Source of the DNA: a virus | DNA length: 64,000 nt | Direction: 5' to 3' (one strand) | IMG/VR virus record: IMGVR_UViG_3300022925_000006 | Shown here: positions 5,995-60,682 of the stretch, piece by piece | Numbering within the stretch: the first letter of the stretch is position 1 | Layout of the letters: the number at the start of each line of letters is the position of its first letter | Program-made: the position numbers and the translations under genes | Notes under the pieces: generated by a model | Told to the model about the DNA's origin: nothing | Database searches by the model: none | Seen by the model: only the letters and a program-made list of their open reading frames with translations

Positions 5995-6285
5995 ATGAGA
6001 AAGAGTAACTTTGATAGGAGACCACAACGTCCTAAACCAAAAGTGTGGCCTAAAGACGGTGCTAGGCAAGTCACCGTAAGATATGATGATGTCGAGACCG
6101 CCTTGAAAGTATTCAAGAGAAAGGTTAAGAAATCAGACATTCTCTTTGATATCAAGAAGAAGGAGTTCTTTGAGACAAGAAGAGAGAAAGGAAGAAAAGC
6201 TAAACTCGCTGCTATCAGGAGGGTTAAAAAGCAAAAAATGAAACAAGCAGAACTTGATGAAAGAATGAAGTTCCGTTACAGATAA
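5995..6285 (+). CDS. rpsU: Ribosomal protein bS21 homolog
   Basis: VTVRYDDVETALKVFKRKVKKSDILFDIKKKEFFE..REK.RK.KLAAIRR matches the S21 pattern; short N-terminal extension. Confidence 0.85.
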   Translation: MRKSNFDRRPQRPKPKVWPKDGARQVTVRYDDVETALKVFKRKVKKSDILFDIKKKEFFETRREKGRKAKLAAIRRVKKQKMKQAELDERMKFRYR

Positions 6286-6296
6286 ATCAAAACTCT

Positions 6297-6304
6297 TATA
6301 AATA
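6297..6304 (+). promoter_or_regulatory. T4-type late promoter
   Basis: Exact TATAAATA in the intergenic gap. Confidence 0.75.
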
Positions 6305-6350
6305 TAGAAGTCAGGTAGACTTAACAAAGTAACAAGGGTGTGGATGTGTC

Positions 6351-6536
6351 ATGAAAAAGACAAAAAGAATAAAATCCCGTCACGGGAATCTGTTGTTTGA
6401 CAACAATAGTCCTTTTAAACAAAAGGTAGTACTCGATAAAACGAAGTACAACCGCAAAAAGAATCCCCGCAAAGTCGGGGATTTTTCTTATTGGTCTTTA
6501 TTAAATTCTCTAAAGGGTCTAACCTTTCCATCATAG
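6351..6536 (+). CDS. ArfA-like basic peptide (putative alternative ribosome-rescue factor)
   Basis: LLFDNNSPFKQKVVLDKTKYNRKK resembles the ArfA core (LL.DPLFRQRV......SY.RK). An intrinsic terminator lies inside the ORF before the stop codon. Confidence 0.6.
   Translation: MKKTKRIKSRHGNLLFDNNSPFKQKVVLDKTKYNRKKNPRKVGDFSYWSLLNSLKGLTFPS
6456..6489. terminator. Bidirectional rho-independent terminator inside the ArfA-like ORF
   Basis: AATCCCCG-caaagt-CGGGGATT stem; T-tract TTTTTCTT on + and TTCTTTTT on -. Confidence 0.85.
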
Positions 6537-6799
6537 AATAACATTTTATACCAAGGAGTGTCCCTCTTCATGCGTGGAAGGGTGTACTCAAACTTCTTAC
6601 CTTCCCTGTTAATCCAAACAACATGATATCCAATCCATCTTCTTGATGGATACCACTGTGCCTTCCCACCATTCACAATAATATTTTCTAGTGTCCAGAA
6701 ATAACAGTTGTTCTTCTTAGTGAACAAACGTATTGGCCATGACCAGAAAAACACAATCATTAATGTGAATGTTATTAATTTTCTGTATAAAGTATCCAT
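6488..6799 (-). CDS. Hypothetical membrane-anchored protein
   Basis: N-terminal hydrophobic helix; ends at the bidirectional terminator; CATATATA-N5-ATG upstream on the - strand. Confidence 0.6.
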   Translation of the reverse strand: MDTLYRKLITFTLMIVFFWSWPIRLFTKKNNCYFWTLENIIVNGGKAQWYPSRRWIGYHVVWINREGKKFEYTLPRMKRDTPWYKMLFYDGKVRPFREFNKDQ

Positions 6800-7121: not shown

Positions 7122-7372
7122 TGATAGAATTTATAGACAGTATAAAGTCTTTCGGGTTTCCGATAGTATCAGCGGTGGGTATGCTGTATATGATTTACTT
7201 CGTGTGGAAAACAATCACCGAAGAAGTCGAGAAGAACTTAGATGATACACAAAAGACCTTAATTGGTTTGATTGACAGAATAAGAATGTTAGATAATGAT
7301 ATCATCCGATTGCAACAGAAACTAGATACTGCAATCGAATTAAAGAGAAAACAAGATGAAGAAAATAACTAA
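7121..7372 (+). CDS. Small membrane protein (GFPI motif, TM plus coiled coil)
   Basis: IKSFGFPIVSAV TM segment; LIDRIRMLDNDIIR. Confidence 0.7.
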   Translation: MIEFIDSIKSFGFPIVSAVGMLYMIYFVWKTITEEVEKNLDDTQKTLIGLIDRIRMLDNDIIRLQQKLDTAIELKRKQDEENN

Positions 7373-7844
7373 GTTTACCGTGATTGAAAAAATAGAATCG
7401 ATTATATTATTGGTTTGTTTTGGACTTATGTTTTTTGTGTTTGCCGAAGTTTCGGCTGCACCGATTGAACATAAGTTTAAATCGCCGTCATTCAGTGGAG
7501 TGAACACTAGTTCTCATTATTTAACAATTGAGAACCAAGAAGCATCTCGTAAACAAGCCATAAAACAAGAGATAAAGGAATTACAGGAACAATTGGAAAG
7601 GGATGCTGAGAATACCACCCTTGCAAAATTTATTAGAAATGTGGAAAGTAGAATTTATTCTACCCTATCACGACAGATTGTAGACAGTATGTTCGGCGAG
7701 AATCCTAGTGATACGGGTTCATTTAACATTGAAGGTACAGGAATATCATACGTCAGAAATGGCGATAGTGTGGAGTTAACAATTACAGATGAGAATGGTA
7801 ATACGACTGTTATCGTTATTCCTCTTGGGGACTTTGGTATCTAG
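7356..7844 (+). CDS. csgF: Curli assembly component CsgF-like
   Basis: Signal peptide then HKFKSPSFSG...YLTIENQE (CsgF F..PnFgG-type motif); F..N.ESRIYS.LSRQI; directly upstream of csgG. Confidence 0.8.
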   Translation: MKKITKFTVIEKIESIILLVCFGLMFFVFAEVSAAPIEHKFKSPSFSGVNTSSHYLTIENQEASRKQAIKQEIKELQEQLERDAENTTLAKFIRNVESRIYSTLSRQIVDSMFGENPSDTGSFNIEGTGISYVRNGDSVELTITDENGNTTVIVIPLGDFGI

Positions 7845-8604
7845 TTGTACTTCTCTCGGTAGTGGAAACTTTGAGATACCACAGAGAGATGAACCAAGAA
7901 TACAGGAAACATTACTCCAACAAGAACTGAAGAATGTTTCTAGTCCGAAGAGGAAACCGACAGTAGCTGTGTATCAGTTTACTGACCAGACGGGACAGAA
8001 AAGACAAAATAGTGGTGGTGGAACTTCGTTTAGTTCTGCGGTAACACAAGCACCTTCGGTGTACCTAATACGTGCATTGAAACGTGCAGCGAACGGAAAT
8101 TTCTTTCGTGTTGTAGACCGTCAAATTATTGACCATGTCACTAGAGAAAGACAACTGATACGTCAAACTCGTCAAAGTTACGAGGGAGATGAATCTCAGA
8201 AATTACCAGCATTAACGTTCGCTGGGATGATAATTGCAGGAGGTATAGTAGGATACGATACTTCGATTGACACAGGTGGCGCTGGTGCTAGATACCTCGG
8301 TATTGGAGCGTCCCGTGAATTTAGTATTGATACTGTGACCGTAAATATACGGTTAGTGTCAGTTGCAACAGGCGAAGTCTTGCTTGATGTAATAACAAGT
8401 AAGACCATACTATCCACGGCTTTTGGTGGGGATGTATTTAAATTTATAGAGCAGGGCACCCAACTGGTTGAGATTGAATCAGGGGTGACTCAAAATGAAA
8501 GTGTTTCCATAGCGACCCAACGTGCTATAGAAACGGGAGTCCTTGCGCTCATTAATCGTGGAAACGACATGGGGTACTGGACATTTAACGGAGAAAATAA
8601 ATGA
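7789..8604 (+). CDS. csgG: Curli secretion channel lipoprotein CsgG
   Basis: Lipobox LVSSC; VAVYQFTDQTGQ, FSSAVTQ, ERQLIR, GGIVGYDT, GGAGARYLGIG, VSVATGEVL..V..SKTILS. Confidence 0.92.
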   Translation: MRMVIRLLSLFLLGTLVSSCTSLGSGNFEIPQRDEPRIQETLLQQELKNVSSPKRKPTVAVYQFTDQTGQKRQNSGGGTSFSSAVTQAPSVYLIRALKRAANGNFFRVVDRQIIDHVTRERQLIRQTRQSYEGDESQKLPALTFAGMIIAGGIVGYDTSIDTGGAGARYLGIGASREFSIDTVTVNIRLVSVATGEVLLDVITSKTILSTAFGGDVFKFIEQGTQLVEIESGVTQNESVSIATQRAIETGVLALINRGNDMGYWTFNGENK

Positions 8605-60521: not shown

Positions 60522-60597
60522 CGACTTATGGTGAAACTGGATATCATACGAGTCTTCTAAACTTGGGTTCAAGGTTCGAGTCCTTGTAGGTCGGCCA
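60522..60597 (+). tRNA. tRNA-Arg(UCU)
   Basis: Acceptor CGACTTA/TAGGTCG; anticodon arm CGAGT-CTTCTAA-ACTTG; T arm CAAGG-TTCGAGT-CCTTG; encoded CCA. Confidence 0.92.
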
Positions 60598-60607
60598 ATC
60601 AATCACT

Positions 60608-60682
60608 GCCTCCGTAGTTTAACGGATAAAACGATGCGCTACGAACGCATAACTCGTGGTTCGATTCCATGCGGGGGCGCCA
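60608..60682 (+). tRNA. tRNA-Arg(ACG)
   Basis: Acceptor GCCTCCG/CGGGGGC; anticodon arm ATGCG-CTACGAA-CGCAT; GGTTCGATTCC; encoded CCA. Confidence 0.93.

Follow-up and report, generated by a model that had tools for sequence, protein, structure and literature searches.

A short basic gene of a pelagimyophage-type phage with a conserved terminator-like hairpin ahead of its stop codon, possibly encoding an ArfA-related ribosome-rescue peptide

The locus and its phage

The window, i.e. the whole 64-kb stretch of viral DNA that was analysed, contains a very basic open reading frame (ORF) of 61 codons on the plus strand (6351–6536), which a preliminary description had singled out as a possible phage-borne ribosome-rescue gene of the ArfA type made from a message without a stop codon. 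The part of this ORF conserved among relatives comprises codons 1–45 (6351–6485, plus strand) and specifies an ArfA-like basic peptide; codons 1–36 show selection at the protein level, and codons 37–45 double as an RNA hairpin. Folding, a terminator scan and conservation all identified this hairpin, which together with the T-run behind it resembles an intrinsic terminator and occupies 6459–6489 (plus strand). The remainder (6486–6536, plus strand) is a formal, unconserved tail that differs among homologs and ends in the stop codon TAG (6534–6536). Upstream of the ATG, a purine-rich, Shine-Dalgarno-like stretch (6336–6344, plus strand) aligns with the AGGAG of the homologous loci L001, L008 and L010 at an equal distance from the ATG. 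An exact match to the T4-type late-promoter-like motif TATAAATA was located at 6297–6304 (plus strand), 47 nt 5′ of the start codon. The motif occurs 11 times in the window against 4.1 copies expected, a count reached in 0 of 100 shuffles, and a motif resembling it is also present 5′ of the gene in the relatives L005 and L008. As the preliminary description had proposed, we infer that the copy at 6297–6304 acts as a late promoter.

Directly upstream on the plus strand lies a gene for a phage bS21 (5995–6285), as identified by Pfam Ribosomal_S21 (E 2.5e-11) and TIGR00030 (E 1e-9). The position of the ORF immediately after bS21, which had been pointed out earlier, is real in the window and does not extend to the clade as a trait: the homolog is preceded by an S21 gene in L001, L010 and L014 but not in L005, L008 and L012. 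The bS21 gene is a neighbour and no part of the switch considered below. On the minus strand, the ORF list contains a convergent ORF of 103 aa (6488–6799) without a match in Pfam, NCBIfam or PHROG, and its 3′ end extends into the formal tail of the ArfA-like ORF. The earlier statement that the frame beyond the hairpin is just the antisense of this gene proved correct: 6488–6536 is antisense to the 3′ end of the convergent ORF, the stop codon of which is immediately adjacent to the hairpin. On the minus strand, the same hairpin (6462–6483) is followed by CTTTTT and, in the terminator scan, its stem starts directly after the stop of the convergent gene, of which it is likely to be the terminator.

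Examination of homologs on marine metagenomic and viral contigs revealed the gene order cell-wall hydrolase, DUF3310, sometimes S21, the ORF, a 69-aa gene, CsgF, CsgG and FecR. CsgF- and CsgG-like curli secretion genes, typical of pelagimyophages, also lie just downstream in the window (7356–8604; Pfam families on homologous loci). Identity of the CsgG amounted to 44% with the protein of Pelagibacter phage HTVC008M and to 39% with the one of OM43 phage Melnitz, and curli genes and S21 are hallmarks of pelagimyophages (PMC7029224). Based on the gene order, the CsgG identities and these hallmarks, the window belongs to an uncultured pelagimyophage-type, T4-like phage. In HTVC008M, the nearest cultured phage, no homolog was detected by the DUF7230 model PF23876 or by the profile built from the pelagimyophage clade, and no cultured carrier of the clade gene was identified. 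Two adjacent tRNA-Arg genes (anticodons TCT and ACG) are present at 60522–60682 of the window, and no tmRNA gene was found in it. Fatty-acid genes, encoding a ketoacyl synthase (FabF-like) and a fatty-acid desaturase, were noticed near the locus in the relatives L005, L014 and L010; in L010, the desaturase gene is the one convergent on the hairpin.

Conservation of the peptide and of the hairpin

A search of 5.8 billion proteins yielded 17 close homologs of the ORF (49–88 aa, E 1e-12 to 1e-17), and a scan of viral contigs added 66 loci. A nucleotide search of the phage collection returned no relative, and tblastn gave a chance-level match alone with the ORF as query and none with P0141, a search in which the low-complexity filter may hide lysine-rich matches. 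Alignment of the homologs revealed 22 invariant positions extending up to N-P-R-K-x-G-D-F; beyond GDF nothing is common and the lengths differ. Within codons 1–36 the amino acids are conserved, with a synonymous codon entropy of 0.7–1.9 bits at most codons and only four codons invariant, and both the Shine-Dalgarno sequence and the ATG are conserved among relatives. Judged by this codon-level pattern, the ORF is a real, conserved gene under purifying selection.

The tail was also considered as a conserved C-terminus, and this was rejected, there being no conservation after the hairpin: the post-hairpin tails comprise 4–23 codons, the sequences of which are wholly different among homologs. In L001, L005 and L019, the formal stop is supplied by the promoter motif of the next gene, namely the TAA contained in TATAAATAA. 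Since the formal stop falls within the promoter motif of the next gene in several loci, the "tail" is ordinary intergenic DNA, in which a terminator is followed by the next promoter. In the window, the tail (6486–6536) is probably not translated from terminated transcripts.

The hairpin of the window is formed by pairing of 6459–6469 with 6476–6486 around a 6-nt loop (6470–6475) and is followed by TTTTTCTTATT; it has 11 pairs, a 5-pair GC core and a T-run that is only 5 T long in the window type. The 71-nt region around it folds with −17.9 kcal/mol (z −2.9). As previously described, hairpin and T-run are situated inside the ORF and before its stop; they lie within codons 37–46 (stem and loop in codons 37–45), with 47 nt separating the stem from the stop codon. 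When intrinsic-terminator-like sites were defined strictly, no other strong one was present on the plus strand anywhere in the window. With one such site in 64 kb, the phage seems sparing with canonical terminators, so that the one inside the gene stands out.

In all of the approximately 28 distinct clade loci, the hairpin plus T-run ends 14–65 nt before the stop, and in none of them does a stop precede the hairpin. Two expectations set out beforehand, that protein conservation should end at the hairpin and that the in-ORF element should be kept in related phages, were thus borne out by the alignment. The nine hairpin codons had a synonymous entropy of 0–0.65 bits, and 98.9% of the pair cells remained paired across 25 distinct loci, G-U wobbles arising in five sequences from a C-to-U change. 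In L036, L037 and L041, one pair was changed on both sides, from C-G to U-A, by which the encoded Arg became Cys and the encoded Gly became Arg; since this compensatory double change altered two amino acids, pairing has been preserved at the expense of the protein. In L038 and L042, three loop bases and one residue have been lost and the stem has been kept. The case for selection of the hairpin as RNA is therefore good but not overwhelming, consisting mostly of invariance together with a single compensatory pair.

The preliminary description had cautioned that the hairpin is also the terminator of the convergent gene. By its position, the hairpin does serve the convergent gene as well in the window, so that this caveat holds there; as the sole explanation it does not. 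A convergent gene follows the hairpin in the window type and the L010 type only, the next gene being on the same strand in L001, L005, L008, L012 and L014, i.e. in five of the seven context types. The view that the hairpin is merely the terminator of the convergent gene was rejected, and because most relatives are without a convergent gene, the hairpin is a property of the ArfA-like gene itself.

Relationship to DUF7230 and ArfA

ArfA (YhdL, PF03889) is the RF2-dependent alternative ribosome-rescue factor of beta- and gammaproteobacteria. Direct searches with the window ORF returned nothing for ArfA in Pfam (no match at E ≤ 1, and thus no score reaching the 25.5-bit gathering score of PF03889), in NCBIfam or among any PDB chain, and comparison with E. 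coli ArfA by BLASTP and by Smith-Waterman alignment with shuffles was not significant. The ORF also had no match to Pfam DUF7230 (PF23876) at E ≤ 1, remaining below its gathering score of 27 bits, and it matched the PHROG family phrog_2701 with E 5.8e-4. When the clade profile was run against 1.84 billion representatives, 35 small basic proteins (39–111 aa) were retrieved at E ≤ 0.001, most of which are DUF7230 members, and the core common to them is K-S-R, L-F, S-P-F, K-V-V, T-K-Y-x-R-K and K-H-K. PF23876 itself was matched by 23 of the 37 aligned sequences, with a best E of 1.8e-8. The membership of the window ORF in DUF7230 is therefore transitive, resting on the relatives that are found by the clade profile and match PF23876.

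DUF7230 (PF23876, phrog_2701) comprises small basic, mostly viral proteins of unknown function, and it is by profile search that the gene belongs to it. The gene shares the core motif from K-S-R through L-F, S-P-F and K-V-V to T-K-Y-x-R-K. The two differ in how they end: in most members of DUF7230 an ordinary stop follows K-H-K, but the conserved part in the pelagimyophage clade runs into a terminator hairpin and the stop has been moved further downstream.

Two distant relatives matched Pfam ArfA weakly and in the C-terminal register (P0153, E 0.014; P0151, E 0.17). Alignment of the family with a narrow set of ArfAs by hhalign gave P 4.1e-4. Since the first homolog search for ArfA had given only near-identical enterobacterial sequences, diversity was drawn from tblastn of plasmids/chromids and phages, and with 88 family members against 20 diverse ArfAs, hhalign gave P 1.1e-4 and a probability of 57%. 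The register of this alignment places 1) the invariant Phe of S-P-F on F25 of ArfA, 2) K-x-K-V-V on R-Q-R-V-E, and 3) K-Y-x-R-K on S-Y-x-R-K, with a 3-residue gap at KGKGS. The F25 equivalent is nearly invariant across the family, as F or Y; the C-terminal, channel-binding half is clearly ArfA-like, whereas the N-terminal half aligns weakly. In ArfA, residues 15–31 constitute the RF2-docking strand, F25 of which occupies a hydrophobic pocket; the tail is accommodated by the empty mRNA channel, and no residue of it is individually essential (PMC6299226). Homology at the profile level was thus found for the functional core of ArfA, i.e. the F25 strand and the basic tail. In cross-HMM comparison, the matches outranked all reversed controls: the family profile placed 13 real sequences ahead of them, and the ArfA profile at least 40.

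The likeness to ArfA extends to further properties. Both proteins are small (52–55 aa in mature ArfA, ~45 aa here) and basic, both have a central strand with the conserved Phe, a C-terminal tail of the Y-x-R-K-x-K-H type is common to the wider family, and in both an RNA hairpin inside the ORF would leave the mRNA without a stop. There are differences as well. The KGKGS motif of ArfA is absent from the family, which has D-K/R-T-K, three residues shorter, in its place, and the N-terminal third differs. The pelagimyophage clade has the hairpin-encoded N-P-R-K-x-G-D-F instead of the K-H-K tail. Truncation would be by intrinsic termination here, whereas RNase III is responsible in E. coli, and the presumed host class of the phage is without arfA.

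The strongest link to ArfA comes from a naturally occurring intermediate in Pseudoalteromonas phage J2-1, a protein annotated as ArfA, which scored 41.3 bits with Pfam ArfA and 28.6 bits with DUF7230 over overlapping residues and so passes both cut-offs. This protein combines an ArfA-type N-terminal half with a DUF7230-type C-terminal half. When the clade-only profile A2 was applied to the 142-kb J2-1 genome, the single match was the annotated ArfA gene (E 0.015). Because direct searches fail, the link to ArfA is made by profile methods and the bridging J2-1 sequence alone. From these comparisons we conclude that DUF7230, including the window gene, represents a divergent branch of the ArfA family. 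The match to ArfA profiles anticipated for the gene accordingly stands for the family, through hhalign, cross-HMM comparison and J2-1, and does not stand for the window ORF itself, which has no Pfam ArfA match and fails both Pfam thresholds.

Canonical ArfA homologs are present in cultured phages (L085–L090), including phages of Alphaproteobacteria (Erythrobacter, Roseobacter and Citromicrobium), and most of them have ordinary stops. The phages with true ArfA copies are Arash, pf16, J2-1, RXM, XM05 and CRP-212; the loci of Pseudoalteromonas phage J2-1 and Citromicrobium phage RXM correspond to L087:383–538 and L088:383–565, respectively. The copy of Salmonella phage Arash is annotated as "ribosomal protein L2" and looks mis-annotated.

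A possible rescue factor from a stop-less message

Distant members of the family (L047–L084) have ordinary stop codons and are without an in-ORF hairpin. The same applies to the ArfAs of phages J2-1, CRP-212 and XM05; in both groups, the ordinary stops lie about where the hairpin sits in the clade. In view of the ordinary stops in distant members, the stop-less design is a trait of the pelagimyophage clade and not of the whole family, and the factor does not need it; the positions of these stops also indicate a functional peptide of ~40–50 residues. As read from the alignment, the K-H-K end has been replaced by the terminator in the pelagimyophage clade and the nearby stop has been lost. The arfA of Citromicrobium phage RXM contains a GC hairpin inside the ORF, well 5′ of the stop.

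In brfA, a rho-independent terminator within the ORF produces a non-stop mRNA and places the gene under the control of trans-translation (PMC6881298). The regulatory layout of BrfA (YqkK, Bacillus subtilis) is identical to that of the clade gene, the terminator of brfA lying in the coding region ~9 codons before the stop, and a GC-rich stem with a T-run, inside the ORF, conserved among homologs and 5′ of the stop, is what was found here. The proteins themselves differ, BrfA being 62–71 aa long with N-terminal helices and chromosomally encoded in Bacillus, and a sequence relationship was neither detected nor expected. A third factor, ArfT of Francisella tularensis, is a basic protein of 40 aa that has an ArfA-like charged tail and is not regulated by truncation (PMC6299226). 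By this description it resembles the stop-bearing members of DUF7230 in being without truncation control, and it differs in having no F25 equivalent and in working with RF1 or RF2.

A similar arrangement was observed on bacterial chromosomes. Among 61 Fibrobacteraceae genomes searched, 15 have a chromosomal ORF of ~79 aa with a DUF7230/ArfA-like motif, R-T-R-V-V-R-D-K-T-K-Y-N-R-N-x-K-H-K-K, in its C-terminal half. The ORF was found at ten loci (L102 and L107–L115; genomes G001, G030, G034, G037, G040, G043, G046, G049, G051 and G058), eight of which (L102 and L109–L115) contain a GC-rich in-ORF hairpin 48–151 nt before the stop, followed by tails that vary. We regard this ORF as a candidate for a rescue factor made from non-stop mRNA. 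A published survey covering 15,259 genomes detected arfA neither in the 2,376 Alphaproteobacteria nor in the 1,956 members of the FCB group (Fibrobacterota, Chlorobiota and Bacteroidota) that it included (PMC11633108). Given this absence from the Alphaproteobacteria surveyed, the phage would bring in a pathway that its host class is without.

Parts of the region were detected in four salt-marsh RNA runs of the metatranscriptome, the gene being covered in one alone. There, X1 (313 nt, depth 3) spans 6251–6563 across the hairpin; as a contig it gives neither strand nor ends and may represent DNA or antisense RNA. Prediction of a complex between the peptide and the RF2 of Caulobacter, used as a stand-in, gave a score of 0.02, which speaks neither for nor against an interaction.

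We favour, with a probability of roughly 0.55, the reading that the gene encodes a divergent phage-borne ArfA relative of ~45 residues, made as a rescue peptide from a built-in non-stop mRNA. From the sequence we infer that transcripts terminate at the hairpin, that the product is tagged and that RF2 is recruited for rescue, events that would proceed as follows. Transcription would be driven by the late promoter and the host RNA polymerase would terminate at the intrinsic terminator in codons 37–46, leaving an mRNA without a stop codon, at the 3′ end of which ribosomes would stall with a nearly complete peptide. As long as the host tmRNA-SmpB has spare capacity, the product would be tagged and degraded; once trans-translation is saturated, as is plausible late in infection when host transcription is failing and mRNA is degraded, untagged peptide would accumulate. 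Its basic C-terminal part would then enter the empty mRNA channel of stalled ribosomes and the central SPF-K-x-K-V-V strand would recruit RF2, so that the nascent chain would be freed and the ribosomes returned to the synthesis of phage proteins. Such a mechanism would require the peptide to be compatible with the RF2 of a host whose class, Alphaproteobacteria, does not itself carry arfA. The interpretation given in the preliminary description is supported as far as sequence analysis goes.

It is possible, with a distinctly lower probability, that the peptide is an ArfA-like rescue factor and its overlap with the terminator is incidental, the terminator having come to lie, by drift, within the dispensable 3′ part of the ORF in a compact genome without any sensing of tmRNA. 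The protein would then be made through sufficient read-through or through tmRNA-independent release, and the terminator would end the transcription unit of the gene itself and, in some phages, that of the convergent gene. Constitutive expression appears workable from the ordinary stops of the distant members and several phage ArfAs, in the window and L010 the hairpin has a second role, serving the convergent gene, and a T-run of only 5 T in the window type would also suit this explanation. However, not one of the approximately 28 diverged clade members has gained a stop before or within the hairpin, though one substitution suffices; if the terminator works at all, terminated mRNAs would be stop-less by construction; and the layout recurs independently in brfA, in the arfA of phage RXM and in Fibrobacteraceae. 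The data are compatible with both explanations, and we regard an incidental overlap as less likely than an adaptive tmRNA-sensing switch.

It is unlikely, and somewhat more so, that the peptide binds the ribosome without rescuing it, by blocking tmRNA-SmpB or host factors in the mRNA channel or by biasing translation together with bS21, or that it is an unrelated basic nucleic-acid-binding peptide. Such a role would agree with the clear ArfA likeness of the C-terminal, channel-binding half beside the weakly aligned N-terminal half, but the alignment also takes in the RF2-contacting strand with its nearly invariant F25 equivalent (F or Y). The adjacency to bS21, which would suit a bias of translation, is seen in part of the clade and is not conserved, and a stop-less layout has so far been known only from rescue factors. 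That there is no protein-coding gene at all, the frame being a chance one over a 5′ leader and terminator or the transcript an sRNA, is highly improbable: the shortness of the ORF, its richness in lysine and the lack of a Pfam match for the window sequence would fit, but the idea is contradicted by the codon-level pattern of conserved amino acids with synonymous sites free at most codons, by the 35 profile relatives (E ≤ 0.001, most in DUF7230) and by the conserved Shine-Dalgarno sequence and ATG.

In the published literature, no paper was found that deals with DUF7230 or with the synthesis of a phage ArfA from mRNA without a stop codon. The arfA gene of phage RXM is mentioned in one sentence of one paper (PMC8953757), and phage copies of ArfA are already annotated in GenBank records. 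We suggest, tentatively and with somewhat less confidence than for the gene itself, that DUF7230 may be a large, mainly virus-borne radiation of ArfA-type RF-dependent rescue factors, the pelagimyophage version of which would be wired as a sensor of tmRNA overload by its in-ORF terminator, with the same module on the chromosomes of Fibrobacteraceae.

Ribosome rescue is essential in bacteria, and, to our knowledge, RF-dependent back-up factors (ArfA, ArfT and BrfA) are known from only a few lineages. Pelagimyophages infect the most abundant marine bacteria. If the suggestion is true, a foreign rescue pathway would reach the host during late infection, where it might counteract host mRNA decay or abortive-infection nucleases generating non-stop ribosomes, and the module of Fibrobacteraceae would extend RF-dependent rescue beyond Proteobacteria and Bacillus. 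Should the reading hold, a Pfam family of unknown function would become a recognisable branch of ArfA, phages would be importing rescue capacity with a bacterial-style feedback switch into hosts that are without arfA, and infection by phages of the SAR11 type would provide a natural situation where trans-translation can be expected to become limiting.
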